Positions 38,076-55,325 are shown, numbered from the stretch's first letter. The stretch is 64,000 nt of DNA from Chthoniobacteraceae bacterium (GCA_037190965.1 JBBCKI010000063.1:1-64000); one strand, 5' to 3'. Translations and numbers: made by a program. Notes: a model not told the origin generated them from the letters alone.

Positions 38076-39253
38076 ACCAGACCTTTCAGGACGACTTGAC
38101 TAGTGAACTCGCGCGCCTACGGCAGGCGGGTACTTACAAGCACTTTCACACCATCGACTCTCCGCAGGGGCCGCTCGTGCAGATGGACGGAAAGGAAGAC
38201 GTCGTCGTCCTCTCTTCCAACAACTACCTCGGCCTGGCAAACAACCCCGAGGTTGTGCAGGCGGGCATTCGCGCGCTGGAGAAGTATGGAGCGGGAACGG
38301 CTTCCGTTCGCTTTATCTGCGGGAAGTTCGGCATCCATCAGGAGCTTGAAGACGAAGTAGCCGCGTTTGTCGGCACGGAGGCTTCCCTCTCCTTCGTCTC
38401 CTGCTGGACTGCGACGGAGGGGCTCTTCCCCACGATTGCGGATGAAAACACCGCCATCTTCTCCGACGAACTCAATCACGCCTGCATCATCGATGCCTGC
38501 CGCCTAGCCAGCAAAGCGAAGCGCACGGTCTACAAACACGCCAATGTCGACGATCTCCGCGCAAAGCTTGAGCTGCATCGGGACACCCATCGCAAGATCG
38601 TCGTGACCGATGGCGTCTTCAGCATGGAAGGCGACCTCGCCCCATTGCCCGACCTCGTCGAGATCTGCCGCGAATACAATGCCATCCTCGTGGTGGACGA
38701 TTCCCACGGCACCGGCGTCGTCGGCAAGACAGGGCGCGGCGTGGCTGAACACTTCGGGTTGCTCAACGAGATCGACATCATCACGGGAACACTAGGCAAA
38801 GCGCTCGGCGGCGCGGCAGGTGGCTTCGTTGCAGGCCCTCGCCCGTTGATTCAATATCTGGAACAGAAAGCGCGCACCCAACTCTTCAGCAACGCGCTCC
38901 CCGCCACCGTCGCGGGAAGCGCCCTCGAAGCATTAAGGCAATTGAAGGTGCATCCCGAATGGGTCGAACGCCTGCATGAGAACACCGCGTGGTTCCGCAA
39001 GGCGCTGCGCGATGCCGGATTTGATCCGCTTGAAGGCGACTCGGCCATCGTGCCCGTCATCATCGGTGAAACGGCAGAGGCCATCCGCGTCAGCGAAGAA
39101 CTTCTCCGCCACGGAATCTTTGTCACCGGCTTCGGCTACCCGGTCGTGCCCGAAGGCAAAGCCCGAATTCGTTTCCAGGTTTCAGCCGCCCACACCCGCG
39201 AGCATCTGGAGAAAGCGCTTGCGGCGCTTAAGGCCGTACGGCCGCAGAAATGA
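38072..39253 (+). CDS. kbl: Glycine C-acetyltransferase (2-amino-3-ketobutyrate CoA ligase)
   Basis: SNNYLGLA, ASVRFICG, DGVFSMEG, DDSH, TLGKALGG and PVVPEGKARIR. Confidence 0.93.
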   Translation: MNQTFQDDLTSELARLRQAGTYKHFHTIDSPQGPLVQMDGKEDVVVLSSNNYLGLANNPEVVQAGIRALEKYGAGTASVRFICGKFGIHQELEDEVAAFVGTEASLSFVSCWTATEGLFPTIADENTAIFSDELNHACIIDACRLASKAKRTVYKHANVDDLRAKLELHRDTHRKIVVTDGVFSMEGDLAPLPDLVEICREYNAILVVDDSHGTGVVGKTGRGVAEHFGLLNEIDIITGTLGKALGGAAGGFVAGPRPLIQYLEQKARTQLFSNALPATVAGSALEALRQLKVHPEWVERLHENTAWFRKALRDAGFDPLEGDSAIVPVIIGETAEAIRVSEELLRHGIFVTGFGYPVVPEGKARIRFQVSAAHTREHLEKALAALKAVRPQK

Positions 39254-41029: not shown

Positions 41030-42113
41030 GGAGATGGGCATCGAACAGGGGGGCTCCGTCGCCGTCGCTCCATTCACAACCCGAACGTTGGCGGCACGAA
41101 TCGCCAACAGAAGGTAAAGGCTCAACAGTCTCGATGATGTCGCTCCTGGACGCCGTCACGTTGGGCCTTGGCTGGAGCCATTGAGCATCAGGCACACTCC
41201 CCTCCAGCCAGGCAATCAACGCGGAAGGAAAGTTGGCTCCCGCCCTGTGAGAAAATGGGTAGCCTCCGCCAATGCGCGGATTGAGATCGATCACCCAAAG
41301 CTCTCCCCGGGCCAAAAAAACATCGCAATCAAGAATTCCGATGTGACGCAATCCTTCGCCCAATTTCCTGCCAAGCTCTTCAAAACGGCTATCTTCAAGC
41401 GTCGTCGCCCTGTCAGTCATTCCCGCACGCATCCGGTGTTTGCATCTGACGAAGGTGGTAACATAGCGCCCTTCCAGATCATTGACGACGTCGAGGCCAT
41501 ACTCCTGTCCCTCAAGACAATTCTGGATGAGGATGCACTGGTTCCGGTCACCGGGACAGTCTCTTGCCAAGCGCTTCTCGAGTAACCGATAGGCCAAAAC
41601 GAGCTCCGTCACATCATGCACAATCTCACACCCCTGGGAACTGACACCGAAGCGGGGCTTCAGCATGACCGGAAATGTCAAACTCCCGCAAGCAAGGGCT
41701 TCGCGCGCGCTGGGTAGCGTTGAATAGCTCACCGGCGCCAGGATGCCGCGTTGGTTCAAAAATTCTGCGGCGGCAAATTTATCGTAACATGTCTGTACGA
41801 TAGATGGGGACGAAACGAGAATCGTTGTCCCGATCGCACGAAACAATGTTTGCCGCTGACTCAGGATCAGCAACTCCGGCTCAAAGGCAGGAACGAGAAC
41901 TCTTACCTCTTCTTCAATGCAGATCTCTCTTAAGACCTCGGCATAGGAAGGATGGTCACATGGAGGAACCAGACAGGCAATGTCCGCATGTTTCAAAGAG
42001 GGCGAATCCACGCTTGAGTCGCAAACGATCACTTTCCCTTTTCCCTTTAGGGCGGCTTTGAAAAATTCGATAAGATATCCCCGCCGCCCGATACAAGTGA
42101 GCAAAACGTTCAT
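40920..42113 (-). CDS. ATP-grasp protein (short carbamoyl-phosphate-synthase-like family)
   Basis: MNVLLTCIGRR, C.DK, KPRFG..S, EYGLD and IDLNPRIGGGYP; its C-terminal tail overlaps the GH20 gene. Confidence 0.8.
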   Translation of the reverse strand: MNVLLTCIGRRGYLIEFFKAALKGKGKVIVCDSSVDSPSLKHADIACLVPPCDHPSYAEVLREICIEEEVRVLVPAFEPELLILSQRQTLFRAIGTTILVSSPSIVQTCYDKFAAAEFLNQRGILAPVSYSTLPSAREALACGSLTFPVMLKPRFGVSSQGCEIVHDVTELVLAYRLLEKRLARDCPGDRNQCILIQNCLEGQEYGLDVVNDLEGRYVTTFVRCKHRMRAGMTDRATTLEDSRFEELGRKLGEGLRHIGILDCDVFLARGELWVIDLNPRIGGGYPFSHRAGANFPSALIAWLEGSVPDAQWLQPRPNVTASRSDIIETVEPLPSVGDSCRQRSGCEWSDGDGAPLFDAHLLNPPGPPVSGDGEALSALVSGNGALLEVQPDKDHLY

Positions 42114-42343
42114 TGATCTTTTCTTTCCGGGTGATTTTCGCAGTTTTTGCCCGAGCACTCATTGGTTTCCTTCATGCATCAGGTTTTCGGGAAAGTGCCT
42201 GAATTTTTTGCCGCAGCTCCCCGGCGGATAATGGCTTTTCGGGGATAAAACATGGATTTTTGGGGTAAAACGACGCAATTAAGGCCCGGCGAATCGAGAT
42301 TCACCGGGCTGAGGAGCGACGTTTTGAGCCAAAGAGACGCTTT

Positions 42344-42510
42344 TAGCCCGATCTCCAATGCTGGAGCGAGCGGAACTGCGCAAGAGCCTGGAGCAGAAAC
42401 GGTTGAGGAGAAGCGCGGTCGTATCCTTTGATACGACGCGTTTCGACGAAGTCGTTTATGCCCAGGAAATTGCGCAAGGCCGCCGTGATCAACTTCGGAG
42501 TTCGGGTTTA
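42344..42510. mobile_element. MITE-like element, family C (~165 bp)
   Basis: Imperfect TIRs TAGCCCGATCTCC / GGAGTTCGGGTTTA; central hairpin GTCGTATCCTTTGATACGAC; related copy at 50634-50816. Confidence 0.55.
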
Positions 42511-42994
42511 GCACAGGGGTGGCAGGGCGATGGAATTCACGGGAAGTACCAATCCGACCGCGAGCATCGAAATTTCAACACAGCTATCGCTACAGACATG
42601 GCGTTCGGCCTCAAGTTTTCGCGGAATAAGCTCCCCTTTCGGCGATTTTCAATCATACAAAATAAGAAACCCTTATCAAGATCACCCTCAGTCCTCTAAT
42701 GTCCTGATTCCAGAAGCGCAGTTCTCCTCATTTCGGGCGGAAAAGGTCACGGGGGGTATTCACCCCTCTTACGTTGAGACCAAAGCGCCTCCGATAATAC
42801 GAAATCGCTCCCTCCTGAAGAAGAATCTGACGATGTGCCGCGCCAGTGCCTCCGGCTTCAGAAATCAAAGAGGATGGGTTACGGCTTGCAGATTTTGAGG
42901 AATCCGAGCAAAGATGAATCAAACTTTTATAAAACCTTAAAAGCGAGCGCCTCCAAACCGCTCGGAGACAAATATTTAATCCAAATTTGATCCA

Positions 42995-44122
42995 ATGAGG
43001 GACTTATCCAGTATGCGTTCGGAGCCGACCTCGCAGTTAAAATTGCTGCTGGTTGAGGACGACGCCTCCGTGCTCGCGGCGCTACGGATGTTTTTGAAGT
43101 CCGACTATGAAATTCATTCGGCGTCCACGGTGAGCGCCGGGATAAATCTCTTCAAAACCCTGCAGCCTGCGCTCGTACTGCTGGACTTGCGCCTTCCGGA
43201 TGGAGATGGACTGAATGCCTTGCGCGAGATACGGCTAATTAGTGCAACGGCCCCCGTGATTATCCTAACCGGTTACGCCTCAATGGGATCCATTGAAGAG
43301 TCCCTGCGCCTCGGAGCTTCCGATTTTCTGCATAAACCGTTCAAGGGATTCGAGCTGAAGTCGCGAATCGATCAATTGACCGGCCGAAATGCACCGCCCC
43401 CTCCCCCTAAAACTCCGGAAGAAAACGAAGAGCAGAAAAAAAAAGAACTGACTGAACTGGAATATCGGGCAAATGCCTCCGCGATGTTTCTGCACGATGC
43501 CGCCGGGCCGGTAACGACCGCGATGACGGCTGCCCAATTTCTAAACGAAGCGATCACCGCATCCCCTGATCACTTCGACCAAAGCTTGCATAAAATGAGC
43601 AAGCTCTTGTGCGATGCGATGAACCTTATCTCGGGGCTGTTTGAACAGAGCCGTTCCATCGAGCAATTATGCGACATGGTGGCCACGGAAGTCCCCGTCT
43701 TGAAGATTCTCGGCCCGACCATCGACCTGCTGCGCCCGAAAATCAGGAGTCGCGACATTACGATGAATGTTGAGGGAAAGCTTGAACATACTAGGTTGAG
43801 AGTTAATCATCTTGCATTGATTCGAGTCCTTTCCAATCTCCTGCACAACGCCATCGATGCCGTGGAAGACAATACTGGCAGGGTCAACCTGACCATGAAT
43901 CTAGAAAAAAAATGGGTTGAGTTTACCATTCAGGACAATGGTTCCGGCATCCCCCCTCAATACATGGAAAAAATTTTCGAAGCCCATTTTACAACCAAAC
44001 CGGAAGGAACCGGCATGGGCCTCTATATCTGCAAACACCTGATAGACAGCATGGAAGGCATGCTTACTGTACGAAATGAACCCGGCCACGGGTGCTGCTT
44101 CTCGGTTAAAATCCCTCGCTAA
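42995..44122 (+). CDS. Receiver-histidine kinase hybrid
   Basis: REC (VEDD, LDLRLP, KPF), atypical H-box FLHDAAGP, HATPase (NAIDA, DNGSGI, GTGMGL). Confidence 0.88.
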   Translation: MRDLSSMRSEPTSQLKLLLVEDDASVLAALRMFLKSDYEIHSASTVSAGINLFKTLQPALVLLDLRLPDGDGLNALREIRLISATAPVIILTGYASMGSIEESLRLGASDFLHKPFKGFELKSRIDQLTGRNAPPPPPKTPEENEEQKKKELTELEYRANASAMFLHDAAGPVTTAMTAAQFLNEAITASPDHFDQSLHKMSKLLCDAMNLISGLFEQSRSIEQLCDMVATEVPVLKILGPTIDLLRPKIRSRDITMNVEGKLEHTRLRVNHLALIRVLSNLLHNAIDAVEDNTGRVNLTMNLEKKWVEFTIQDNGSGIPPQYMEKIFEAHFTTKPEGTGMGLYICKHLIDSMEGMLTVRNEPGHGCCFSVKIPR

Positions 44123-44124
44123 TT

Positions 44125-45552
44125 ATGACTGCCCCGAACTCTGAAACCGATAATGACAGCATTATCGTTTGCGAAAACAGCCAAGGCGTTACCGTTCGTG
44201 CCATCCTACTCAGGATGACTCGCTATACGGTGAGCTTCGAAGTCTACAATCCTTACAGCATCCTTCAGCTTTCCGAAGTTCTGGGAAGCTTTCGGATCAT
44301 CATCGGCGGAAAAATCCTTTACTCAGGGCGAGGGATTGTCTGCAACATGGTCAATACGGGCATCGTGCTCGTTTGCGAAGCCTCGCTCGATGAGGAAAGC
44401 TGGCTTGAGCTTGATCTCCTCGCCCCGTGGGCGCAGGTGGAGCGGCTCGCAAGTGACTTTGAACGCATCGTCTCCGAATGGGGAAAGATGGAGCAGGTGT
44501 CACCCGAGCTCAAGGTGATCGTCTCCGACATGCAGACACTTCTTTCCGACATGCGGCGTTGGCTCGAACAGGTCGAGCTTGCCATTCGTTCGGGCTCTCC
44601 CCCCGAAAGAAGGAAGCTGGAGCTGACGATCATCGAACGGCTCAACACCTTGATTCTTCCGGTCACTCAAAAGCTTTTCGAGCGGTTCGAGGAGATTGCC
44701 GGAGGCACCAAGGACGAAGTTGTGGCGGTGCATCGCGCCTACGCGCGTCGCCAGCTTCACCCTCTCGTGCTTTGCTCCCCCTTCCTGCACCGGACTTTTC
44801 AGAAGCCGCTTGGCTACGCCGGCGACTACGAGATGGTCAACATGATCTTGCGGGATCCCGTCGAAGGCGCCTCTCTCTTCGCCAAGATGCTCAACAGTCA
44901 CTTTGTTGGCGTCGCGCCTGCGGAAGCACATCGCAATCGGGTCACCTACCTGACTGAAATGCTCAGCAGGGAGACGCGCCGCCGGGCCAAGCTTGGTTTG
45001 AACACCAGGTTCTTCAATCTCGGCTGCGGACCCGCCAAGGAAGTGCAGAACTTCCTTAACGATGATGACTTGTGTGATCGCGCCGAGCTGGCATTGCTCG
45101 ACTTCAACGACGAAACGCTCGCACAAACAGGAACGCTTCTGACCGACATCAAGATGAAGCTTCGCCGGTCAACACGGCTGCACATGATCAAGCGCTCCGT
45201 GCACCAGATCCTCAAGGAGGGGGCGCGCATCGGGGAAGTCGATACGGGAGCAAAGTACGACGTGGTTTATTGCGCCGGGCTCTTCGACTATCTTTCCGAC
45301 CGTATCTGCCATCGTCTGCTCGAGATTTTCTACGAAATGCTCGCCCCGGGCGGCCTTCTTGTGGCGACGAATGTCGAAGCGTCAAACCCGGCACGGGGGA
45401 TGATGGAGTATTTAATGGACTGGCACCTGATCTACCGGACCGGAGATCAACTCAAAGCGCTCGCGCCCAAGGGTGCGCTCCCCGAGAACATCGCCATTAC
45501 CGCCGATGTTACGGGCGTTAACATCTTCCTTGAAGTCACCAAGCCGCAATGA
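44125..45552 (+). CDS. phcB: PhcB-like SAM-dependent methyltransferase (3-hydroxy fatty acid methyl ester signal synthase candidate)
   Basis: NSQG...FEVYNPYSILQLSEVL, KPLGYAGDYEMVN, AHRNR, NLGCGPA and YCAGLFDYL, as recalled for Ralstonia PhcB; followed by sensor and receiver genes. Confidence 0.75.
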   Translation: MTAPNSETDNDSIIVCENSQGVTVRAILLRMTRYTVSFEVYNPYSILQLSEVLGSFRIIIGGKILYSGRGIVCNMVNTGIVLVCEASLDEESWLELDLLAPWAQVERLASDFERIVSEWGKMEQVSPELKVIVSDMQTLLSDMRRWLEQVELAIRSGSPPERRKLELTIIERLNTLILPVTQKLFERFEEIAGGTKDEVVAVHRAYARRQLHPLVLCSPFLHRTFQKPLGYAGDYEMVNMILRDPVEGASLFAKMLNSHFVGVAPAEAHRNRVTYLTEMLSRETRRRAKLGLNTRFFNLGCGPAKEVQNFLNDDDLCDRAELALLDFNDETLAQTGTLLTDIKMKLRRSTRLHMIKRSVHQILKEGARIGEVDTGAKYDVVYCAGLFDYLSDRICHRLLEIFYEMLAPGGLLVATNVEASNPARGMMEYLMDWHLIYRTGDQLKALAPKGALPENIAITADVTGVNIFLEVTKPQ

Positions 45553-48212
45553 ATTTGGTGAAACCGGGAGTCGGGCCGCCTGATTTCTCTTTGGAAGAGA
45601 GCGCGGCCCCCTCAAACGATCTTAAACAGGCTTTCTTTGAGTATAATCGCGACGTCCGCATCGCGAACTCAAAGATCGCCTGCATGCTGGTGATCGTCTT
45701 GATGCCCGTCGGTGTGACGCTCGATTATTTCGTCTATCCGGAACAAACCGGGTTCTTCCTGGTGCTGCGACTGATTTGTTCGGCGCTCGCAGGAGGATTG
45801 TGGGCGCTGCTGGGAACGCCCTTCGGCTATCGTCATTTCCGCGTTCTGGGGATGGGGTGGTTCGTGCTTCCGTCCTTTTTCATCAGCCTGATGATCTTCT
45901 TCTCCGAAGGGGCCAGCTCTCCGTACTACGCGGGGCTAAATCTGGTGTTGATCGCCGTTTCGTGGGTTGCCCAGATCGATTTTGTCGAGAGCTTGATCGC
46001 TGTGGGCTTGACGCTGCTGATGTATACGCTCGCGTGCCTGGGGCATGGAGGAGGCTCCGGCTCAGAGTATTTCAATAGCTTTTACTTCATCATCCTGACG
46101 GGCATCATCGTCGTCACCGGCAGCTACTTCCTAAACAGCCTGCGTTTTCGGGAATACGCCCTCCGTTCCGAGCTCGACCGCAACCGGCACGAGCTTCAGG
46201 AAAGCAACGCCAAGCTGGTGGAGCTTGATCGCGCAAAATCGGCTTTTTTTGCCAACGTCAGCCACGAACTTCGCACGCCGTTGACGCTTCTCATCGCGCC
46301 GCTCGACCGTTTACGCCATCGCGACGCGGGCTTCCCTGCTCATGAAGAGGGGGAAATGCTCGACATCATGTACAACAACGCGATGCGGCTCCTGCGCCTC
46401 ATCAATGACCTGCTCGATCTCGTGCGGCTCGATTCCGGCGCCATCCAGATCAAGCGGGAGAAGGTGGAACTGCTCCCATTTTTGGAAGGAATCGCAAAAT
46501 CGGTTTCCGTCGTCGCCGAGCAGAGAAAGCTCAAGTTCGAAAGCCGCTTCTCACCTCAAACGCAGACATCGGCCTCGATCGACCGCGACAAGCTCGAGAA
46601 AGTCATCCTGAATCTCCTCTTCAACTCGTTCAAGTTCACCCCCGAGCGCGGCCACGTCACCTTTACGGGCACCGTGGAAGAGGGACAACTGATCGTGAGC
46701 GTAAGGGACACCGGCGCGGGGATTGCCGCCTCCGATCTGCCGAGGATTTTTGACCGCTTCTGGCAGGCGGAAACCGCAGCAACACGCCGCTATCAGGGAG
46801 TCGGTATCGGATTGGCGCTCGTCAAAGAATTAACCGAAGCTCACGGTGGCCATGTCACTGTTGAAAGCGAACCAGGCAAAGGAACATGCATCCAAATCAC
46901 GGCTGATATTATGGGAACTCTCCACGAAGAACCAGAACCGGTGCCACAGGAAGTGGTCAATGCCCCAGTTGAATCGGAATGGCTGGTACAGTTATACCGG
47001 CGAGCCGAATTTTTCCCCGCCCACGTATTGGCAGGCAGCCAGACAAACGCTTCTCCGGAGGAATCCAGCCAGGATAAACCGTTGGTGCTCATCGCCGACG
47101 ACGAGCCGGAGATGCGGCGATTCCTCACTTCTCAGCTCAGAGGCCGCTACGCGATTCGCGAGGCGCGCAACGGCACCGAGGCGCTGGAACTCGCCCAGAG
47201 CCACGATTTCATTCTGATTCTGCTCGATCTGATGATGCCGGGCATTGACGGGATCACTCTCACGCGGCAACTCCGCGAGGAAGCCCGCACGGCTGCCGTC
47301 CCCATAGTCATTCTCACCGCACGCGCCGACGAAGATTCCAAGATGCAAGCCCTCGAAGCCGGGGCGACCGATTTCCTGACGAAGCCTTTCGCCAGCAGTG
47401 AACTGACGGTACGTTGCCGCAACCTCGTCCTGCAGCAGCAATTGCAACTGACCCTCGCCGGAAAAACCCGGGAGTTGGAAGCTGCCCTGGATCAGATCAA
47501 GGAGACCGAAGCCCAGCTTGTTCACCAGGCTAAAATAGCCTCGTTGGGACAGTTAAGTGCCGGGCTCATCCATGAGATCAACAATCCTCTCAATTTTGCC
47601 AATACTGCGGCCCATTTGATCCAGAAACGCTTTTCCAAACTCGCCCCGGAAGAGCGCGAATCCCTGCAACTTCCCATCAAGGATCTTCAGGATGGAATCC
47701 GCCGGGTTTCCGATATTATCAGCAGCCTGCGGTCGTTTACACACCCCGACGTCAGCAACTTCGCCTCCACTCCCCTGCACGAAGTTGCGGAAACATCGGC
47801 ACGGTTTGTGCAACTTGACCCCTCGGAAATCACACTCGAGATCAACATTCCGCCCGAGATCGAGGTTTGGGGAAACCGCAACCAACTCATTCACCTTTTC
47901 ATCAACCTTATTCAGAACGCCAGCGACAGCCTCCGCCAAAAGGCCGCACCGGAGAAAAAAATCAAGTTGGAAGCGTCATTGCAAAGTGGCCGCATTCTGG
48001 TGATATGTGAGGACAATGGCGCAGGGATCGAGACCAACGTTATCAACAAGGTATTTGATGCATTTTTCACCACGAAACCCGTCGGATCTGGCGTCGGCCT
48101 GGGCCTAAGCATCAGCCATCGCATCGTTCAGAACCACCAAGGCGAAATTCGTGTGGAAAGTGAAGCAAACCAATACTGCCGTTTCATTATAACCCTCAAT
48201 CCTCGGAGTTAA
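45549..48212 (+). CDS. PhcS-like membrane sensor: TM bundle-HisKA-HATPase-REC-HisKA-HATPase
   Basis: About 6 TM helices (LDYFVYP, SPYYAGLNL), SHELRTPL, REC (ADDE, DLMMP, KPF), HEINNPLN and two ATPase domains. Confidence 0.88.
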   Translation: MNLVKPGVGPPDFSLEESAAPSNDLKQAFFEYNRDVRIANSKIACMLVIVLMPVGVTLDYFVYPEQTGFFLVLRLICSALAGGLWALLGTPFGYRHFRVLGMGWFVLPSFFISLMIFFSEGASSPYYAGLNLVLIAVSWVAQIDFVESLIAVGLTLLMYTLACLGHGGGSGSEYFNSFYFIILTGIIVVTGSYFLNSLRFREYALRSELDRNRHELQESNAKLVELDRAKSAFFANVSHELRTPLTLLIAPLDRLRHRDAGFPAHEEGEMLDIMYNNAMRLLRLINDLLDLVRLDSGAIQIKREKVELLPFLEGIAKSVSVVAEQRKLKFESRFSPQTQTSASIDRDKLEKVILNLLFNSFKFTPERGHVTFTGTVEEGQLIVSVRDTGAGIAASDLPRIFDRFWQAETAATRRYQGVGIGLALVKELTEAHGGHVTVESEPGKGTCIQITADIMGTLHEEPEPVPQEVVNAPVESEWLVQLYRRAEFFPAHVLAGSQTNASPEESSQDKPLVLIADDEPEMRRFLTSQLRGRYAIREARNGTEALELAQSHDFILILLDLMMPGIDGITLTRQLREEARTAAVPIVILTARADEDSKMQALEAGATDFLTKPFASSELTVRCRNLVLQQQLQLTLAGKTRELEAALDQIKETEAQLVHQAKIASLGQLSAGLIHEINNPLNFANTAAHLIQKRFSKLAPEERESLQLPIKDLQDGIRRVSDIISSLRSFTHPDVSNFASTPLHEVAETSARFVQLDPSEITLEINIPPEIEVWGNRNQLIHLFINLIQNASDSLRQKAAPEKKIKLEASLQSGRILVICEDNGAGIETNVINKVFDAFFTTKPVGSGVGLGLSISHRIVQNHQGEIRVESEANQYCRFIITLNPRS

Positions 48213-48221
48213 CCTACCATC

Positions 48222-49478
48222 ATGATGAACAACCTGTACGACTACAAAAAGTTTGGACTCCTCTACGTGGATGATGAGGCCCAAACCGCATCGAACTTTA
48301 AGGCCTACTTTTCCGACACCTTTGACGTGGAAGTTGCCACAAGCGGAGAAGAGGCATGGGAGATTTTCTCCGCCAATAAAAACCGCTTCGCCATCGTCAT
48401 GAGCGATCAGCGGATGCCCGGCAGCAGCGGTGTCGAACTCCTGGAAAAAGTGCGTGCCGCCAGCCCCCGTGTCCTGCGTATTCTCGCCACGGCATACTCG
48501 GACATCGAGGCCGCCATCGCCGCCGTCAACAACGGCGCCATCTATCGCTATGTCAACAAGCCGTGGGACCCGCCCACGCTGGAAATGGAACTCAAGCGCG
48601 GCATGGAGTTCTTCCTGGTTCAGCGCGAACGGGATTCCCTGATGAAGGAAAAACTGTCGGCGCTTCAGCGCATGATGGTGACCGATCGCCTCTTGAGCCT
48701 TGGAGTTTTTGCCGCGGGGCTCAACCATCATTTGCGGAACTCCCTCACCGCAGTGAAAACATTCCTCGATCTCGCTCCCTTCCAGTTGCAGAGCGAGAAC
48801 ATCGACATCAACAACCTTCGTAACCCCAACTACTGGCGGGATTTTTACTCCACCGTCCAGGGGCAGATCTGCAAGGTGGTCGGATTGCTTCAGGATATCA
48901 ACGAAATCCCCCAACCCGCCGGAACGCCTTTGGCGGATTCCGTCTCGTTGAACACGCTCGTTCAGAGTGCTTACGACACCCATCGTGGAGCCTTTGACGA
49001 CAAGAAGATCGACGTCCGGCTTGAACTCGACCAGATTCCCGAAATCAAGGGCAATCGGCCTCTTTTGGAAAAGGCGCTCAAGCTCCTGTTGGCGGACGAG
49101 TCTTCAAATGTCCCCGCCGCGGGGAAAGTAACGATCAAAACAGCGGCCGACGTCGATAGTGCCGGACGGCAAGGAATCAAAATCGAGCTTCTCGACAATG
49201 GCCCGGGCCTTTCAGCCGCAAAGCTCGACTGCATCTTCGATCCGTTTTTCGTGCGGCAGGACAATCCCAGCGAGTACGGACTCAATCTCCTGACCTGCTT
49301 CTTTGTCGTTCACCACCATAGCGGAAGCATGCTTGTTGATCGCAGTGATGAAGGTGGGGCTCATTTCAAGATATTCTTGCCGCTGCAAGCCAGGGATAGC
49401 GACCTCCGCCAGGAAGAAACCTATTTGGAGCGCGTCTTCGAAATGGAAAAGACCTGGGAAAAGATGTTGATCAACTAA
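48222..49478 (+). CDS. PhcR-like receiver plus degenerate kinase domain
   Basis: REC (YVDDE, SDQRMP, KPW), NHHLRNSL, DNGPG and FDPFF, with degenerate N and G2 boxes (ADESSN, YGLNL). Confidence 0.82.
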   Translation: MMNNLYDYKKFGLLYVDDEAQTASNFKAYFSDTFDVEVATSGEEAWEIFSANKNRFAIVMSDQRMPGSSGVELLEKVRAASPRVLRILATAYSDIEAAIAAVNNGAIYRYVNKPWDPPTLEMELKRGMEFFLVQRERDSLMKEKLSALQRMMVTDRLLSLGVFAAGLNHHLRNSLTAVKTFLDLAPFQLQSENIDINNLRNPNYWRDFYSTVQGQICKVVGLLQDINEIPQPAGTPLADSVSLNTLVQSAYDTHRGAFDDKKIDVRLELDQIPEIKGNRPLLEKALKLLLADESSNVPAAGKVTIKTAADVDSAGRQGIKIELLDNGPGLSAAKLDCIFDPFFVRQDNPSEYGLNLLTCFFVVHHHSGSMLVDRSDEGGAHFKIFLPLQARDSDLRQEETYLERVFEMEKTWEKMLIN

Positions 49479-49525
49479 TAGGCGAGGCCCATCACCTCTC
49501 TTGGAAGAAGTAACATTTCGTGCGT

Positions 49526-49554
49526 GGCCCGGTTTTCCAATGGAAACCGGGCCA
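49526..49554. terminator. Hairpin between convergent genes
   Basis: TGGCCCGGTTTTCCAATGGAAACCGGGCCA. Confidence 0.55.
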
Positions 49555-49632
49555 TTTGAATTTGATTAGCGCAATCCCCTCCTCCACCGGCCATGGCTAC
49601 CTGCATGAGCAAGGCCTCCAATCATCAACGCC

Positions 49633-50307
49633 TCAACTGAGTAGACGATAAGCCGACTCAGAGAACGCAAGAATATCGCTCCAACCCAATTCGAACGCAG
49701 GCTCCATTTCCTTAATGAAACGCCGAGTCGAATCGGCAATTTTCTCTTCAGCAGTTGCCAAACGTCGGCCAACGCTGCTCTCGTGACACGCCCACAATAC
49801 GGCGACCTCCCTCCGGGTTAACCCATGACCATGGACAAGTTGAAGGATGACGAGATCCTCCGGATCGCATTCCCGGAAAGCATTGCGAAGGGCTTGTCCG
49901 ACGATTTCGACGGCTACCGGATCGACCAGCCCGTCCGACGCTCCTTCGCTTAAGCTCTCGCTTTCCTGCAACGCCCGCAATTCCTCAATAACTTCGTGGC
50001 GAACCTTCTCGTGCCGCTTTCTTGAAATCCAACGATTAATGGCGATGGCCGCCAGCCATGGCTGAAGGATTGATCTCCCGTCAAATCGGTGAAAAAGAGG
50101 AACACGGCCGGTATCGCCTGCGAGACAGTCTGCCCAGATCGCCGCAAGAATTTCGTCCGCTTCGCTTTCAGACGCACCGCGCCTCGTCAGGACCGCTCGC
50201 AGGTAAGGACCGTTAATCCTCTGGAGCTCCAAAATGGACTCTGTGTCACCCTCCAGACAACGCTGCACGAGGTTGATGTCACGAATTTCGTCTAACTGTT
50301 CACCCAT
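49633..50307 (-). CDS. ECF-type sigma-70 factor
   Basis: D..LVQRC..GD, region-2 FDGRS.L..WL..IA.N and region-4 GLTRREVA.L....ESSV.RRL. Confidence 0.8.
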   Translation of the reverse strand: MGEQLDEIRDINLVQRCLEGDTESILELQRINGPYLRAVLTRRGASESEADEILAAIWADCLAGDTGRVPLFHRFDGRSILQPWLAAIAINRWISRKRHEKVRHEVIEELRALQESESLSEGASDGLVDPVAVEIVGQALRNAFRECDPEDLVILQLVHGHGLTRREVAVLWACHESSVGRRLATAEEKIADSTRRFIKEMEPAFELGWSDILAFSESAYRLLS

Positions 50308-50414
50308 CCGGTCTCGATCTTAGGAATTCAAGGTGGGCATACAACGCAAAAGAGGGTGCGAAGCGAGGCAAAAGCTTTTGCAAGCCTGAGCCGGTATGGC
50401 GTAGCCTACAAAAA

Positions 50415-50642
50415 GTGATGACGAATTTTGGCAGCCTATTTCGCCTTCTTGAAACCCTCGACAAGGAGGTTTCGGGCCGACAAGCCGTCACGCCGCCGAT
50501 GGAAATTCAAGGATTGCTCCGCGATTTGATGCAAGGAAACCTTTCTGCGAAACAGCGGAAGGTCATTTGTGAAAAGCTCCTGGAGGAACCGGGGTGGATC
50601 GCATGGTTCGCGGAGGAGATTAAGGCCAATCGCACCCGATGA
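50415..50642 (+). CDS. Small protein resembling a Cys-less anti-sigma N-terminal domain
   Basis: 75-aa ORF with L..L..G.LS..QR..I.E.L; TTGCAA-N18-TAGCCT lies 7 nt before the GTG. Confidence 0.55.
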   Translation: MMTNFGSLFRLLETLDKEVSGRQAVTPPMEIQGLLRDLMQGNLSAKQRKVICEKLLEEPGWIAWFAEEIKANRTR

Positions 50643-50816
50643 CGATTGGGAATCGACGAGCGGACGCCGCGTAAGCATACAGGCCTTGCGGTTGAGTGAC
50701 GGAAGAATAGCAAGGGTTGCCGCACTATTGCTGACACCCTCGGATTCCACGGAAAACAACGAAGAACCGCGTAAAATTGCGCAAGGCCGCTACGAGTGCG
50801 TCGGAGTTCGGGTTTG
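50634..50816. mobile_element. Degenerate second copy of MITE family C
   Basis: AAATTGCGCAAGGCCGC (50774-50790) and TCGGAGTTCGGGTTT (50801-50815) are identical to 42467-42483 and 42495-42509. Confidence 0.55.
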
Positions 50817-51186: not shown

Positions 51187-51280
51187 TTAACGGAGTCAAT
51201 TTTACGCAATTATGGGGCTTGTGCAAGCGCTCAAGCAAAAATCGCTCGACTCTTCTCCCGCAAGGCATGATTTTCCGGGC

Positions 51281-51718
51281 GTGCGAATTTCCCGCAAGTC
51301 CGAATACGCCATCCGCTCCCTCGTGGCGATGGCCCGCCAGCAGCGCTCCTGGAGCATCCAGGAGCTCTCCGGGCAGGAGGCGATTCCCGTGAAGTTTCTG
51401 GAGCAAATTCTCCTGACATTGCGCCACGCGGGTTATCTTTCCGCGAAGCGTGGTGTGGGCGGCGGCTACACCCTTCGGGCCGCTCCCTCCACCATCAAGG
51501 TCGGCGACGTGATCCGCACGATGGATGGGCCGATCGCCCCGGTTCCCTGCGCGGCGGCGCAGCCTTCCGAAAATTGCACCTGCCCCGATCCCAAGACCTG
51601 CCCGCTACGGCTCCTGATGACGGAAGTACGGGTGGAGATCGCAGGAATGCTCGACTCGCGGACGATCGACGACCTCGTCCAAATGCACCCGGGCAATGCG
51701 CTGGCGTTTGAGATTTAA
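51281..51718 (+). CDS. Rrf2-family transcriptional regulator (4 Cys)
   Basis: RISRKSEYA, IP.KFLEQIL, RG.GGGY and DGPIAPVPC...C.C.....C. Confidence 0.9.
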   Translation: MRISRKSEYAIRSLVAMARQQRSWSIQELSGQEAIPVKFLEQILLTLRHAGYLSAKRGVGGGYTLRAAPSTIKVGDVIRTMDGPIAPVPCAAAQPSENCTCPDPKTCPLRLLMTEVRVEIAGMLDSRTIDDLVQMHPGNALAFEI

Positions 51719-51739: not shown

Positions 51740-52504
51740 CTACACCTTCCCCGTTCCCCAGCGGCGATGCAACAACCGCTCCCAGGGTGAGAAGAGGATC
51801 TTGTCGGCCAGCAGGCCGATCACCACGATGATCAGCATGACCCCAATGACCTGATCCATCGCATGGAGGTTACGCCCATAGTCGAGAAGCTGGCCTAGGC
51901 CAAAGCCGGTGAGAATAGTAACAAAAATTTCCGCCGCCATCAGCGATCGCCAGGCGAAGGCCCATCCCTGTTTCATCCCGCTGACGATGAATGGAGCCGA
52001 GGCGGGCAATGTCACGTGGGTCAGGGTGTAAAACGGACCCGCACCCATGGTACGGGCGGCCCGGGCATAAATTGGCGGAACGTTGCGCACGCCGTTGTCA
52101 GTCGCGATGATCACCGACCAAACCGTTCCCATTACGACCACAAAAAGCATGGCGGCCTCCGTCTGCCCGAAGCCGATCAGGGCCAGAGGCACCCAGCAAA
52201 CGCTCGGCAGCGTTTGAAGCCCGAGCGCAAGCACACCGACCGTATCTTCCATGAGCTTGAAACGCGCGACAAGCATCCCCAGCGGAAGCCCCACCGCGAT
52301 CCCCATGAAATAACCGGTCAGGAGCCGCCTGAGCGTCACCCAGGTCGCCTGTGGCAACGTGCCGTCCAGCGTGGATTCCTTGATATAATCCCACACGGCC
52401 AGCGGATCGGGCACCATCACGGGGTTCACCTTGGCTGCTGCCACAAAGTGCCAGGCCACCACGAGCGCGATAAAAAAGAGGACGGAAGAAAAAAAACGTT
52501 TCAT
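51740..52504 (-). CDS. SsuC/TauC-type ABC permease
   Basis: LQTLPSV.W, AARTMGA, LPAS.P and WRSLMAAE. Confidence 0.9.
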   Translation of the reverse strand: MKRFFSSVLFFIALVVAWHFVAAAKVNPVMVPDPLAVWDYIKESTLDGTLPQATWVTLRRLLTGYFMGIAVGLPLGMLVARFKLMEDTVGVLALGLQTLPSVCWVPLALIGFGQTEAAMLFVVVMGTVWSVIIATDNGVRNVPPIYARAARTMGAGPFYTLTHVTLPASAPFIVSGMKQGWAFAWRSLMAAEIFVTILTGFGLGQLLDYGRNLHAMDQVIGVMLIIVVIGLLADKILFSPWERLLHRRWGTGKV

Positions 52505-52524
52505 TTGCTGCGATGACTCTGCCG

Positions 52525-53328
52525 CTATTCTGCCTCCTGAGCGTGAACGTACCCCTTAAGCGCGCGGGTGATCCGCGTGGCATATCCCGCAAGTTCCACG
52601 CTGTTGATGTCGCGCGGACGCGGCAGATCGATCTCAAACTCCTCCCGGATACGCCCCGGATGCGGTGAAAATAGAACCACGCGATTCCCGAGACAGACCG
52701 CCTCGCGCACGTTGTGTGTGACGAAAACGATGGTCTTCTTTCGCTCCGCCCAGATCTTCTGGATATCGCCGTAGAGCTGTTCGCGCGTCAACGCGTCGAG
52801 CGCGGCAAAAGGCTCGTCCATCAGGAGCACGCGCGGGTTTGGGGCCAAGGCGCGCGCCAGGGCAACCCGCTGCTTCATGCCACCGGAAAGCTCGTGGACA
52901 TTCGCGCGAGTGAATTTTTCCAATCCCACCAGTTTGAGATAAAACCGGGCGACTTCCTTGCGCTCGTTGCTGTTGAGATTGGGCTTCAGCTTCAACCCGA
53001 ATAGAACGTTGCCCAGCACATCGAGCCATGGAAAAAGCGCTGACTCCTGGAACATGACCATGCGGTCTCTGCCCGGCTCGGCGATCTCCTTCCCGTCCAT
53101 GAGCGTCTGTCCGCTGTCGGGCTGTTCCAACCCGGCGATGATGTTGAGAAGGGTCGATTTTCCGCAACCGCTTGGCCCCACGAGGCAGACGAAGTCCCCC
53201 TCCCCGATCTGGAGAGAAACTTTATCCAGGGCATGCACGGTCCCGCGGTTGGTGCGGAACACCTTGGATACATCCTCAATCGCCAATTTGGCCGGTGTCG
53301 CGGCCTGAAGTTCGTCCGAAAGTGTCAT
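52525..53328 (-). CDS. SsuB/TauB-type ABC ATPase
   Basis: GPSGCGKS, LFPW, LSGGMKQR and MDEPFAALD. Confidence 0.92.
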   Translation of the reverse strand: MTLSDELQAATPAKLAIEDVSKVFRTNRGTVHALDKVSLQIGEGDFVCLVGPSGCGKSTLLNIIAGLEQPDSGQTLMDGKEIAEPGRDRMVMFQESALFPWLDVLGNVLFGLKLKPNLNSNERKEVARFYLKLVGLEKFTRANVHELSGGMKQRVALARALAPNPRVLLMDEPFAALDALTREQLYGDIQKIWAERKKTIVFVTHNVREAVCLGNRVVLFSPHPGRIREEFEIDLPRPRDINSVELAGYATRITRALKGYVHAQEAE

Positions 53329-53351
53329 TGAAAAGTCAAAGCGTCGATGCG

Positions 53352-53520
53352 TTGGAGCGTTTTTGAGTTAAATGTTTACAATTATTTGCGAGCGCCGTGG
53401 GTTGGTGCGCGGTTTTTCAAGCAAAGTGGCTGTATTTCCAATACTGCCCGAGCTTGAAAGGCCCCGCAACGACCGGCGCCGCCGCAAAAAATGTAAACAG
53501 GAAATTCAAAACCGTTCTAA
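53352..53520. mobile_element. MITE family A, diverged copy inside the ABC operon
   Basis: Aligns by eye to 59540-59708; ends TGGAGCG... and ...CCGTTCTA. Confidence 0.8.
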
Positions 53521-53523
53521 AAT

Positions 53524-54489
53524 TCAGGGCTTGGTCACGGGATTCACGACCAGACGCTGGAGATCCGGCACCTTTCGCAAGAACCCCGCTTCCTTCGCAT
53601 TCTTCACGTAAGTCTCCAGACTCTTCATGTCGACCTCATTGGTCAAGATAATGCGAGGCCAGGCCGCCGCAATCAGCTCCGGGGAGATCTTCGACTTCGT
53701 CTCCTCGGAGAGTTCCGCCACCACGCGCCGCTGGGCTTCCTCCGGATTGGCCTTGACCCAGTCCGTCAGCTCCCGATGGGCTTTGACGAGTTTCTCCAGA
53801 AGCTTCGGTTGCTCTTTCTGAAACTTGACGCTGGAGACGAGCACTGTCGTCACGGCATCCCGATCTTCCACAAAAACGACTCCGCCCGCATCGCGAACGA
53901 GCCGGGAGACCCACGGCTCGACGGTCCACGCGGCGTCGATCTTTCCGGCGCTGAAGAGCGCAAACTGGTCAGGATTTGCCGTCGGGATCACCTGGGCGTC
54001 CCCGCCGAGCTGCGTGATCTTGAGCCCCTGCTCTTTCAACCACGCCCGGGCAGCCACGTCCTGAGTATTACCAAGCTGCGGCGTCGCAATTCGCTTCCCT
54101 TTGAAATCCGCGCCGGTTTTGATCCCGGCATCCGGTCGAACCACCAGGGCCTCGCCGCCATTCACAGAGCCGGCAACGATACGAACCTCTTCGCCCTGCG
54201 ATTTGGCAAACGCGTTGATGGCGGGACTGGGGCCGACGTAGGTTACATCAATGCTTTGCGCGAACACCCCCTCCATCGCGCTCGGGCCCGCGTTATAAAT
54301 GTACCAGTCGATCTTGACGTCCGGTCCAAGCCGTTCTTCAAACCAGCCTTTGCCTTCGCGAGAGAAATTATGGGCAATGAGGGCCTGCACATGCGTGACA
54401 TTCGGGAAGTGCCCGACGCGAATCCGCGTCTCCGCCTGTGCTCCCGCCAAGGTAAGGGCCCAAAGTGCGGCTGCGATGAGTGGTTTCAT
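53524..54489 (-). CDS. SsuA-type (aliphatic sulfonate/nitrate) ABC substrate-binding protein
   Basis: Signal peptide; GHFPNVTH, NAGPSA, YVGPSPAIN, ATPQLGNTQD and EPW. Confidence 0.9.
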   Translation of the reverse strand: MKPLIAAALWALTLAGAQAETRIRVGHFPNVTHVQALIAHNFSREGKGWFEERLGPDVKIDWYIYNAGPSAMEGVFAQSIDVTYVGPSPAINAFAKSQGEEVRIVAGSVNGGEALVVRPDAGIKTGADFKGKRIATPQLGNTQDVAARAWLKEQGLKITQLGGDAQVIPTANPDQFALFSAGKIDAAWTVEPWVSRLVRDAGGVVFVEDRDAVTTVLVSSVKFQKEQPKLLEKLVKAHRELTDWVKANPEEAQRRVVAELSEETKSKISPELIAAAWPRIILTNEVDMKSLETYVKNAKEAGFLRKVPDLQRLVVNPVTKP

Positions 54490-55170: not shown

Positions 55171-55278
55171 GGGAAGAGAGGCAAACCTATGGACGCGGCC
55201 CTCTCGAAGCAACCCCTTTTCGCTCCAAAACGGTTCCCTCGCCCAGAGGCGGCCTAGAGAGTTGGAATCAGGGACAAG

Positions 55279-55325
55279 ATACAACATCTTGTGGTTTCCG
55301 CCCTGGCGCGGCGGCTAGATTGTGC
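55279..55325. promoter_or_regulatory. Tandem NrdR-box-like sites upstream of smc
   Basis: ATACAACATCTTGTGG (55279-55294) and a half-match GGCGGCTAGATTGTGC (55310-55325), 31 bp apart. Confidence 0.5.

Follow-up and report, generated by a model that had tools for sequence, protein, structure and literature searches.

A probable Phc-family cassette for making and sensing a signal, with a long-form sensor, in a Chthoniobacteraceae bacterium

Results and discussion

A cassette of four genes in a Chthoniobacteraceae bacterium is probably a self-contained signalling unit of the Phc family that both makes and senses its signal, in a form with an unusually long sensor. It lies at positions 42995-49478 of the window, by which we mean the whole stretch of 64,000 nucleotides that was analyzed (GCA_037190965.1 JBBCKI010000063.1:1-64000). 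Every part of the cassette has recognizable homologues, the order of its genes is conserved among relatives, and its catalytic and phospho-acceptor motifs are intact. Judged by sequence comparison, the four genes are true relatives of the Phc module (phcBSRQ), through which Ralstonia cells signal to one another, in a longer and more elaborately wired form. We found no papers on Phc-type cassettes outside the Burkholderiales; the long-form cassettes of Verrucomicrobiota and other environmental phyla are otherwise known from automated annotation.

Organization of the cassette

An ORF reading of the window resolves the cassette into four tightly packed genes on the + strand (Table 1). P0001 and P0002 are separated by a gap of 2 nt (TAA-tt-ATG), P0002 and P0003 share a 4-nt ATGA overlap (caATGAat), and the TAA of P0003 is followed after 9 nt by the ATG of P0004. 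These coordinates and junctions are exactly those from which an initial annotation of the DNA had described four tightly coupled genes. The hairpin that closes the operon starts 46 nt past the P0004 stop and is the strongest of 12 terminator-like sites in 42100-49800. Upstream of P0001, the ORFs called in the presumed promoter region have no Pfam match and the region contains no Rfam family; its DNA does not resemble what lies upstream in the closest relatives (loci L113, L115 and L097), and a consensus scan of its + strand gave no convincing sigma-70 site.

A hydropathy scan places six transmembrane (TM) segments at residues 36-195 of P0003 and zero in P0001, P0002 and P0004. P0001 and both kinase cores of P0003 retain every phospho-acceptor His and Asp, along with their N and G1 boxes. 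Pfam searches of the cassette and the immediately flanking ORFs found no encoded DNA-binding domain and no LysR gene, in agreement with the earlier remark that the four genes include no DNA-binding response regulator.

Table 1. Coordinates of the cassette genes, their domains and the flanking elements in the window.
Feature	Position	Strand	Description
Upstream non-coding region	42159-42994	.	Presumed cassette promoter; 836 bp, GC 0.50
P0001	42995-44122	+	375 aa; receiver-controlled histidine kinase (REC-DHp-CA), LvrB-like architecture
P0002	44125-45552	+	475 aa; PhcB-family SAM-dependent methyltransferase, candidate signal synthase
P0002 N-terminal beta domain	44158-44388	+	Residues 12-88; six-stranded, predicted PilZ-like fold, AF2 domain model pLDDT 85
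P0002 helical cap	44437-44994	+	Residues 105-290; AF2 model
P0002 Rossmann-type SAM-binding domain	45004-45540	+	Residues 294-472; AF2 model secondary structure
P0003	45549-48212	+	887 aa; long-form Phc-type sensor (six-TM, HK1, REC, HK2)
P0003 PhcS-type six-TM sensor domain	45627-46199	+	Residues 27-217
P0003 HK1	46233-46904	+	Classical HisKA + HATPase_c core; H239, N359; Pfam HisKA 229-297, HATPase_c 345-452
P0003 internal receiver	47085-47414	+	D560; Pfam Response_reg, residues 513-622
P0003 HK2	47493-48197	+	PhcS-type kinase core; H675 in IHEINNPL, N790
P0004	48222-49478	+	418 aa; PhcR/PhcQ-type, REC + degenerate kinase-like domain
Terminator-like hairpin closing the operon	49524-49555	+	14-bp stem, 8 G-C pairs

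The methyltransferase

P0002 resembles PhcB along its whole length. Against the protein of our reference, the phcBSRQ locus of Ralstonia syzygii (L053), residues 1-470 align with residues 1-460 at 36% identity (E 8e-108). The similarity takes in the beta domain at the N-terminus and the central helical region as well as the SAM domain, and so reaches beyond the generic SAM fold to which, the initial annotation had allowed, it might be limited. Four motifs listed there as matching the phc locus (NSQG at 18, EVYNPYS at 39, KPLGYAGDYEMVN at 227 and AHRNR at 268) are all present, and all are identical in R. syzygii PhcB. An alignment of 30 family members contains 50 invariant columns, which are spread over all three regions of P0002 and include GCGP (300-303), D326 and YCAGLFDY (382-389). 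At only 36% identity to the characterised PhcB, substrate specificity is not transferable. Profile searches return generic class I methyltransferases, every match being below the cut-off in Pfam and sub-threshold in NCBIfam as well.

The family of P0002 homologues is large and is already labelled automatically as PhcB in IMG, where many members carry the name "EF 3-hydroxypalmitic acid methyl ester biosynthesis protein", the designation of the PhcB orthologue. Those with names belong mostly to Verrucomicrobiota, such as Pelagicoccus, Methylacidiphilales and Verrucomicrobiales MAGs, which points to this phylum for the window by an indirect route.

A sequence search found no solved relative of P0002, and its structure was modelled with AF2 (pLDDT 86). 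The best Foldseek matches of the SAM-binding domain are 3ocj from Bordetella (TMt 0.63) and the small-molecule methyltransferases SgvM, SibL and DnrK. For the beta domain, the top ten Foldseek rows are all PilZ-type c-di-GMP receptors (TMq 0.57-0.64, E about 7e-3 to 2e-2). The top ten VIA-align rows are also PilZ-type, with 73-93 residues aligned at an rmsd of mostly 2.6-3.5 A (6.0 A in one row) and Z scores of 8.0-9.7, little above the background of the tool, for which the best Z is typically 7-8. Pfam PilZ has no match in P0002. The c-di-GMP-binding motifs of PilZ domains are RxxxR and (D/N)xSxxG. The former is absent from P0002 because its first 24 residues hold no Arg, and most aligned family members likewise have none ahead of NSQG; the latter is not fitted by NSQG.

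The sensor

P0003 combines two segments related to PhcS with a long insertion between them. The six-TM domain aligns with residues 7-199 of PhcS at 30% identity over 191 residues (E 5e-26), and hydropathy gives six TM segments in both proteins, which bears out the proposed kinship of the sensor TM domain with PhcS. HK2 aligns with PhcS residues 186-441 at 38% identity (E 2e-46). HK1 is weakly similar to the PhcS kinase; an alignment that runs across the TM domain and HK1 has 26% identity. Pfam reads the protein as HisKA, HATPase_c, REC and a second HATPase, the HisKA/HATPase pair (229-452) and the REC (513-622) being inserted between the TM domain and the PhcS-like core (631-887). The expanded phosphorelay of the initial annotation is thus real, and consists of an extra kinase core and receiver inside P0003, in an HK-REC-HK layout. 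The NCBIfam model for LvrA (NF047465) covers most of the same ground in one alignment (P0003 205-883 against 177-816 of 819 model positions), at 299.8 bits and a cut-off of 1200. TM-HK1 and REC-HK2 are separable modules, since one relative (locus L106) encodes them as two proteins of 485 and 395 aa.

The receiver proteins

P0001 and P0004 both begin with a receiver and continue into a kinase-like region. In P0001, Pfam places REC at 18-125 and HATPase_c at 273-374, and the predicted key residues are D64, H167 (in FLHDAAGP) and N285. Among solved structures it matches Leptospira LvrB best (8vc9), with residues 35-374 aligned to 27-375 at E 8e-18, and it scores 70.5 bits with the NCBIfam LvrB model (NF047466), for which the cut-off is 500. 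The identity between P0001 and the REC-HK2 part of P0003 is 27%.

P0004 has affinities to two Phc proteins. Its REC and linker are 36% identical to PhcQ (E 2e-38), and an alignment to PhcR spans both domains, with 25% identity in 388 residues (E 5e-27). Pfam finds REC (D62), a weak HisKA and HATPase_c. Its ATP lid has a degenerate G2 box (EYGLNLL), while the His (H169/H170), the G1 box (DNGPGL) and one Asn of the N box are kept; "degenerate kinase", the term first applied to the fourth gene, is therefore a fair one. With its ATP lid in this state, P0004 could act as a phosphatase, in phosphotransfer or as a scaffold.

Distribution and gene neighbours

The cassette is patchily distributed, occurring in 14 of 400 other genomes of the phylum. 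It was found in none of five genomes of congeneric species, and in full length in one of 24 genomes of the family, and is therefore dispensable for the lineage. Wherever it does occur the arrangement is strongly conserved: the TM-HK1-REC-HK2 sensor lies directly downstream of the methyltransferase in all 14 of the other phylum genomes that carry it, and a P0004-like gene follows the sensor at 12 of these 14 loci. A survey of the 80 best metagenome relatives, with testable loci alone as denominators, gave a similar picture, with a TM sensor downstream of the methyltransferase at 57/58 loci, the full long sensor at 37/38 and a P0004-like gene at 29/31. Long sensors are the norm in the Verrucomicrobiota-type branch.

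The first gene has a much narrower range. A homologue of P0001 lies directly upstream of the methyltransferase at one of the 14 genome loci (G421, 53% identity) and at 4 of 51 testable loci among the best 80 metagenome relatives; the LvrB-like gene is found only in the nearest relatives of the cassette. Those relatives (L113, L115 and G421) have PhcB identities of 72-78%, and homology to them begins at the start of P0001 and stops at the stop of P0004, indicating that all four genes move together.

The neighbours of the cassette vary between relatives. At five of the 14 genome loci the gene directly upstream of the methyltransferase encodes a reducing type I PKS (KS-AT-DH-ER-KR-ACP), a gene for a FadL/TodX outer-membrane channel occurs at 26 of the 80 best metagenome loci, and some relatives have a gene for a Trp-halogenase-like flavoenzyme near the methyltransferase. 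The PKS and FadL neighbours hint at a lipid-like substrate, which we regard as a candidate, and the variety of PKS, halogenase-like and FadL genes suggests that the acid esterified may differ from branch to branch. Neither a PKS nor a FadL gene stands beside the cassette in the source genome, and a search of that whole genome, which is 97% complete, detected no gene of the FadL family.

Proposed mechanism and alternatives

By analogy with PhcB, P0002 would use SAM to convert a fatty-acid-like carboxylic acid, by default a 3-hydroxy fatty acid, to its methyl ester. Such a product would be hydrophobic and membrane-permeant; it would diffuse between cells, would presumably build up with cell density, and could be detected within the membrane by the six-TM domain of P0003. 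HK1 (H239) would then phosphorylate the protein's own receiver (D560), and this may switch on HK2 (H675), as happens in LvrB. From HK2, HK1 or both, phosphate could pass to the receivers of P0004 (D62) and P0001 (D64). P0004 probably works by contact with a regulator whose gene lies elsewhere, on the model of PhcQ, which is reported to bind and stabilise PhcA (PMC13320629), and P0001 would serve as a second receiver-controlled kinase, relaying to an unlinked response regulator.

The same genes could be read as an autoinducer system with another signal, a different methylated carboxylate such as a polyketide-derived or otherwise modified acid, with no cross-talk with Ralstonia-type signals. We hold this to be possible though rather doubtful. 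The modest identities to PhcB (36%) and to the TM domain of its sensor (30%) are in its favour, as are relatives whose methyltransferase is paired with a reducing PKS of its own or with a halogenase-like flavoenzyme; in a quick tree with a midpoint root, moreover, the PhcB of the window and the Burkholderiales proteins fall on opposite sides. Against it, no dedicated acyl-chain synthase lies beside the cassette, which favours a substrate from general metabolism, for example 3-hydroxyacyl compounds formed on the way to fatty acids or lipid A. It is less likely still that the circuit is private, with the methyltransferase modifying a lipid intermediate of the cell and the six-TM sensor monitoring its pool, or the state of the membrane, to adjust envelope physiology. 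A sensor domain that is wholly embedded in the membrane, as six TM segments with short loops, would suit such feedback, and so would a genome without a FadL-type channel. However, the only characterised members of the family, those of Ralstonia and Cupriavidus, are described as making secreted methyl 3-hydroxy fatty acids that are sensed by PhcS (PMC8578825, PMC10653808), and both the strict linkage of synthase and sensor among the best 80 metagenome relatives and the portability of the unit in changing contexts are typical of autoinducer systems.

That the genes are chance neighbours, a generic methyltransferase beside unrelated two-component genes under an artefactual PhcB label, has a negligible probability. 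The sub-threshold, generic profile matches of P0002 speak for this explanation, but specific, full-length homology ties the genes to PhcB, PhcS and PhcR/Q, and the same order recurs at dozens of loci. We consider a chance assembly or annotation artefact ruled out by the homology of P0002 to PhcB and of the P0003 TM domain to PhcS, together with the conserved linkage.

The make-and-sense reading can be extended, tentatively, to the history of the module. Phc-type signalling may have begun with the long-sensor cassette, which would also be its predominant form, and the Ralstonia PhcS may be a reduced derivative from which HK1 and REC have gone. The cassette of Verrucomicrobiota would then be a portable quorum-sensing unit in which synthesis of a lipid methyl ester is gated through the PilZ-like N-terminal domain of the synthase, and in which receiver-controlled kinases in an Lvr-type cascade carry the signal to regulators encoded elsewhere. 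If this were true, it would be the first self-contained quorum-sensing unit for Verrucomicrobiota.

Comparison with known systems

The cassette shares with the Phc module full-length PhcB homology (36%), a six-TM domain (30%) and a PhcS-type kinase core (38%). The order of methyltransferase, sensor and R/Q-type receiver (B-S-R/Q) is kept, as first annotated. P0004 unites a PhcQ-like receiver (36%) with the REC and kinase-like layout of PhcR, and as the product of the last gene it is a receiver protein that lacks a DNA-binding domain; PhcR and PhcQ are also described as having none (PMC8578825). The Phc signals themselves are methyl 3-hydroxymyristate or methyl 3-hydroxypalmitate, secreted and then sensed by the cognate sensor. 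Several differences are equally clear. P0003 has 887 aa, with an additional classical kinase and receiver, whereas PhcS has 442 aa; the short sensor, a TM domain joined to a single kinase core, is found at each of the 13 Burkholderiales loci that were examined, and P0003 departs from it. The cassette has one PhcR/Q-type gene where phcBSRQ has two, and adds the REC-kinase gene P0001 upstream of the methyltransferase. It has no phcX-like gene, P0001 being set apart from the LqsR-family PhcX by its architecture and the upstream ORFs having no Pfam match. There is no PhcA, the LysR-type regulator that serves as output of the Phc module, among the cassette or adjoining genes, and the two hosts are from different phyla.

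In its cytoplasmic part P0003 follows the HK-REC-HK layout of Leptospira LvrA, and P0001 follows the REC-DHp-CA layout of LvrB, its best solved relative. LvrA is described as a cytosolic protein with one PAS domain, an HK and a receiver-kinase module, which phosphorylates LvrB (PMC5863495); LvrB is reported to be activated when LvrA phosphorylates its receiver, and then to phosphorylate LvrC (PMC13269768). Both systems appear as branched relays without a DNA-binding regulator in the operon. They differ at the input, where P0003 has a six-TM PhcS-type sensor in place of the PAS domain of LvrA, and in the methyltransferase of the cassette, a word with 0 occurrences in PMC5863495. As the NCBIfam scores lie far under the cut-offs, the Lvr proteins are architectural analogues or distant relatives and not orthologues. 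A further comparison is with the other long-form cassettes of Verrucomicrobiota and other environmental phyla. The FadL, PKS and halogenase-like neighbours seen among them are absent here, and the common core is a methyltransferase, a TM-HK1-REC-HK2 sensor and a REC-pseudokinase, to which this cassette and its nearest relatives add an LvrB-like kinase.

Homology to the Ralstonia Phc genes

The cassette's methyltransferase (P0002), membrane sensor (P0003) and receiver protein (P0004) are homologous to products of the Ralstonia phc genes. The reference was reached from a full-length Paraburkholderia plasmid relative by way of Cupriavidus proteins and a scan of named genomes, which yielded 80 Burkholderiales loci, among them that of Ralstonia syzygii subsp. 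syzygii (L053), a member of the R. solanacearum species complex. The ORF order in L053 agrees with the order phcX, phcB, phcS, phcR, phcQ given in a published account (PMC10653808). The plasmid relative belongs to a phcBS + RR + RR cluster of Paraburkholderia graminis and is 39% identical to P0002; it is the one full-length relative in the plasmid collection, and the other 136 plasmid records match P0002 only partially, mostly in its C-terminal half.

The initial annotation had raised two possible objections to a Phc-type identity: that the likeness to PhcB might be confined to the generic SAM fold, and that the sensor's membrane domain might be unrelated to PhcS. The alignment of P0002 with PhcB spans nearly the whole protein, and the membrane regions of P0003 and PhcS are related, with six predicted TM segments in both (see table). 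Because both objections fail, the Phc-type identity of the cassette is supported at the level of homology. The motifs named in the initial annotation, NSQG, EVYNPYS, KPLGYAGDYEMVN and AHRNR, are all identical between P0002 and R. syzygii PhcB. P0004 resembles both PhcQ and PhcR, and the match between the receiver-kinase P0001 and PhcR is a generic receiver-level likeness only.

Features of the cassette, its surroundings and selected related loci; matches are to proteins of the R. syzygii reference locus, with percent identity and E-value
Feature	Location	Strand	Length and content	Match
P0001	42995-44122	+	375 aa; Pfam REC, HATPase_c	PhcR, receiver only: 25%, 2e-9
P0002	44125-45552	+	475 aa; Pfam class I methyltransferase matches, all sub-threshold	PhcB, residues 1-470: 36%, 8e-108
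P0002 N-terminal domain	44158-44388		residues 12-88	
P0003	45549-48212	+	887 aa; Pfam HisKA, HATPase_c, REC, second HATPase	PhcS TM region, 27-217 vs 7-199: 30%, 5e-26; PhcS kinase, last kinase core, 631-887 vs 186-441: 38%, 2e-46
P0004	48222-49478	+	418 aa; Pfam REC, weak HisKA, HATPase_c	PhcQ, receiver plus linker: 36%, 2e-38; PhcR, 388 residues, both domains: 25%, 5e-27
Halogenase-like gene	32580-33671	-		
Dehydrogenase-aminotransferase pair	37017-39253			
Downstream ORF	49633-50307	-	224 aa; no Pfam family	
Downstream ORF	50436-50759	-	107 aa; no Pfam family	
Rrf2-family regulator	51212-51718			
ABC transporter	51740-54489	-	NMT1/sulfonate-type binding protein	
Rrf2-family regulator	54526-55287			
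Halogenase-like flavoenzyme of a relative	L099:2495-3880	-		
Split sensor of a relative	L106:9589-12306		485 aa and 395 aa	
PKS of a relative	L110:1767-8039		directly upstream of PhcB homologue	

The four genes are tightly coupled. The 2-nt gap, ATGA overlap and 9-nt gap reported at their junctions were all confirmed in the sequence, and a terminator-like hairpin with a 14-bp stem lies 46 nt past the last stop. On the 5' side an 836-bp non-coding stretch separates the cassette from a divergently oriented ATP-grasp gene; a promoter scan upstream of P0001 gave no convincing site, and an Rfam scan of 42000-50500 yielded nothing beyond one chance hit, under the threshold, on a nematode snoRNA. By hydropathy, the N-terminus of P0003 has six TM segments; P0001, P0002 and P0004 have none. 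The GC content of the cassette, 0.55, is slightly under the window mean of 0.585. Of the flanking genes, which are poorly conserved in congeners, the ATP-grasp gene had a match in one of five genomes searched (45% identity) and the 224-aa ORF downstream of the cassette had none, and no empty insertion site could be defined.

The two downstream ORFs are convergent with the cassette, and farther downstream a pair of Rrf2-family regulator genes flanks an ABC transporter. Upstream, a gene for a zinc-dependent alcohol/threonine-type dehydrogenase overlaps the class I/II aminotransferase-fold gene that follows it, and the two resemble a common pair of the tdh-kbl type. The CqsA/LqsA autoinducer synthases share this broad aminotransferase-fold family; nothing ties the gene to the cassette.

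Structure of the methyltransferase

A search for solved structures related to P0002 by sequence found none. The AF2 model (pLDDT 86) has three parts: residues 12-88 form a six-stranded beta domain, residues 105-290 are helical, and residues 294-472 fold as a Rossmann domain. The Foldseek matches of the C-terminal two-thirds include 3ocj, an uncharacterised protein from Bordetella (TMt 0.63), and methyltransferases that act on small molecules and carry a helical cap. A separate model of the N-terminal domain (pLDDT 85) predicts a six-stranded beta-barrel, for which each of two independent aligners ranks PilZ-type c-di-GMP receptor proteins in all ten top places, at scores only modestly above background (Foldseek TMq 0.57-0.64 with weak E-values; VIA-align Z 8.0-9.7). 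The canonical RxxxR motif is missing from this domain, which we record as a predicted PilZ-like fold without assigning a ligand. The domain is conserved across the whole PhcB family, Ralstonia PhcB included. A full-text literature search of incomplete coverage found no paper tying PhcB to the PilZ fold; in passages of PMC10576176, PilZ denotes a pilus gene only.

Distribution and gene order

Relatives of P0002 are numerous. Clusters at 90% identity include more than 5,000, a count for which the best 8,000 candidates were scored, and an exhaustive search of 50% representatives gave 4,716 matches at E ≤ 1e-3, of which 644 reach E ≤ 1e-30. PhcB homologues at 59-67% identity occur in Pelagicoccus species. 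Many homologues bear the IMG name 'extracellular factor 3-hydroxypalmitic acid methyl ester biosynthesis protein', and PhcB orthology is already implied by these automated names. P0002 is single-copy in its own genome. In an evenly drawn sample of the phylum it has a match in 14 of 400 other genomes and in 9 of 185 genera, the window's own included. Closer kin rarely carry it: there was no match in five congeneric species or in 16 genomes from the rest of the order, and 24 genomes of the same family held one full-length match (G421, 78% identity) and one partial match (G407, 25%, residues 206-473 only). The scattering of these matches indicates that the cassette is patchy.

Where the methyltransferase occurs, the sensor follows it. 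The synteny survey proposed in the initial annotation showed one arrangement in each of the 14 phylum genomes: after the methyltransferase come, in this order, a TM domain, a first kinase core (HK1), a receiver (REC) and a PhcS-type kinase core (HK2), the layout that we call the long form. The sensor is a single ORF of 869-1015 aa at ten of these loci, split at one and not resolved at the ORF level at three; at L103, L105 and L109 antisense ORFs were picked in place of the sensor, and a single-ORF sensor is there supported by the order and spacing of domains seen with tblastn rather than by an ORF call. A P0004-like gene is present at 12 of the 14 and missing at L106 and L107.

Metagenome loci gave a similar picture. 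Among the 80 best relatives of P0002 (45-89% identity), a PhcS-type TM domain lies downstream in 57 of the 58 loci with enough downstream DNA, a complete long sensor in 37 of 38 testable loci, and a P0004-like gene in 29 of 31. The exception to the long form, metagenome contig L185, has a short PhcS-like sensor in which the TM domain runs straight into the PhcS-type kinase, and no P0004-like gene was detected downstream of it. A P0001-like gene is directly upstream in only 4 of 51 metagenome loci (L113, L114, L115 and L127). When the window is compared with its nearest relatives (L113, L115 and L097), similarity starts at the P0001 start codon and stops at the P0004 stop, so the four genes behave as a unit in differing surroundings. 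The extra LvrB-like kinase gene, P0001, and the absence from the congeners searched are particular to the window's instance.

Neighbouring genes in relatives

Genes beside the cassette in its relatives are consistent with a hydrophobic, acyl-chain-derived carboxylate as the substrate and with a product that resembles a lipid. At 5 of 14 genome loci (L108-L112) the methyltransferase is directly preceded by a reducing type I PKS, between about 2,090 and 2,540 aa in length; the one that was domain-scanned reads KS-AT-DH-ER-KR-ACP. A FadL/TodX outer-membrane channel gene occurs at 26 of 80 metagenome loci and at some genome loci. In three genomes of one genus (L099-L101, PhcB identity 55-57%) a divergent gene for a Trp-halogenase-like FAD flavoenzyme lies upstream of the PhcB homologue. 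Such differences suggest that different branches may use different acids. At L110 at least, a FadL-type channel gene precedes the PKS, and three REC-containing genes follow the sensor.

The window's cassette adjoins no PKS, halogenase-like or FadL gene, and no FadL-family gene was detectable in its genome (97% complete). A 28%-identical homologue of the halogenase-like gene lies about 10 kb upstream of the cassette and is probably unrelated to it.

Evolution of the sensor form

The short PhcS of Ralstonia may be derived from a longer sensor. A quick maximum-likelihood tree (IQ-TREE), rooted at its midpoint, was built from 65 PhcB sequences; a locus was kept if its HSP reached 430 aa and its downstream DNA 2.9 kb, a filter that removed L097 among others. 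The 13 Burkholderiales proteins with short sensors form one clade (SH-aLRT 99), which joins a PKS-linked verrucomicrobial clade with long sensors (98) and then L106/L107 (98). P0002 lies across the midpoint root from the Burkholderiales, grouped with L113, L115 and L114 (100), and L185 falls within a group of long-form relatives. On this tree the sensor form must have changed twice, in the Burkholderiales clade and in L185. The short PhcS would be derived, unless the true root sits on the Burkholderiales stem. If the Ralstonia sensor is a reduced form, the reading of PhcS, PhcR and PhcQ is affected.

Comparison with known systems

To our knowledge, work on Phc signalling, the master switch of bacterial-wilt virulence in Ralstonia, has so far been confined to Ralstonia and related Burkholderiales, and we know of no characterised quorum-sensing system in Verrucomicrobiota. 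Our literature search found no description of Phc-type systems outside Burkholderiales, and a 2026 review handles Phc as a Ralstonia system (PMC13220807). On balance we favour a make-and-sense cassette, in which P0002 would form an ester that diffuses from the cell and is sensed by P0003, with phosphate predicted to pass quickly to D64 of P0001 and D62 of P0004, and one unlinked response regulator expected downstream of P0001. The sequence establishes the homology, the gene order and its conservation, and the intactness of the motifs, whereas the product, its diffusion, the phosphotransfer directions and the output are inferences. If long-form cassettes do make and sense lipid methyl esters, a whole class of signals between cells would have been overlooked in soil, water and sediment. 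The PhcB family comprises 644 clusters (50% identity, E ≤ 1e-30).

The output of the cassette is likely to be indirect. PhcR and PhcQ are described as lacking DNA-binding domains (PMC8578825), and PhcQ is reported to work by binding and stabilising PhcA (PMC13320629). The partner to which LvrB of Leptospira signals is encoded by a separate gene (PMC13269768).

The initial annotation spoke of an expanded phosphorelay, and P0003 does carry an extra HisKA/HATPase core and receiver relative to PhcS: PhcS has 442 aa, and the PhcS-type membrane domain and HK2 (H675) of P0003 are set apart by HK1 (H239) and the receiver (D560). P0001, P0004 and PhcR each align with the REC-HK2 half of P0003 along almost all of it, at 25-27% identity, and L106, which comes from a genome of a different class in the phylum, has the sensor divided between two genes, TM-HK1 and REC-HK2. 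Judged from these alignments and this split, the long sensor is best seen as a fusion of a PhcS-type membrane kinase with a receiver-controlled kinase; the natural unfused state in L106 supports the two-module view.

A comparable relay is known from Leptospira. LvrA, which phosphorylates LvrB, is a cytosolic PAS-HK that carries an additional receiver-kinase module (PMC5863495). LvrB is the prototype receiver-controlled kinase: once its receiver is phosphorylated, its catalytic domain is released, and LvrB phosphorylates LvrC in turn (PMC13269768). Residues 205-883 of P0003 align in one piece to the NCBIfam model of LvrA, at 300 bits and so far under its cut-off of 1200. The best solved relative of P0001 is LvrB (8vc9, E 8e-18, near full length), and P0001 scores 70 bits against the LvrB model, the cut-off of which is 500. 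These likenesses reflect common architectures and not orthology. The cassette joins two so far unconnected lines of research, the PhcS-type lipid-sensing membrane domain and the LvrA/LvrB-type receiver-controlled kinase cascade, and the activation mechanism of the latter, structurally solved in 2026, leads to testable predictions on the phosphate-carrying His and Asp residues.
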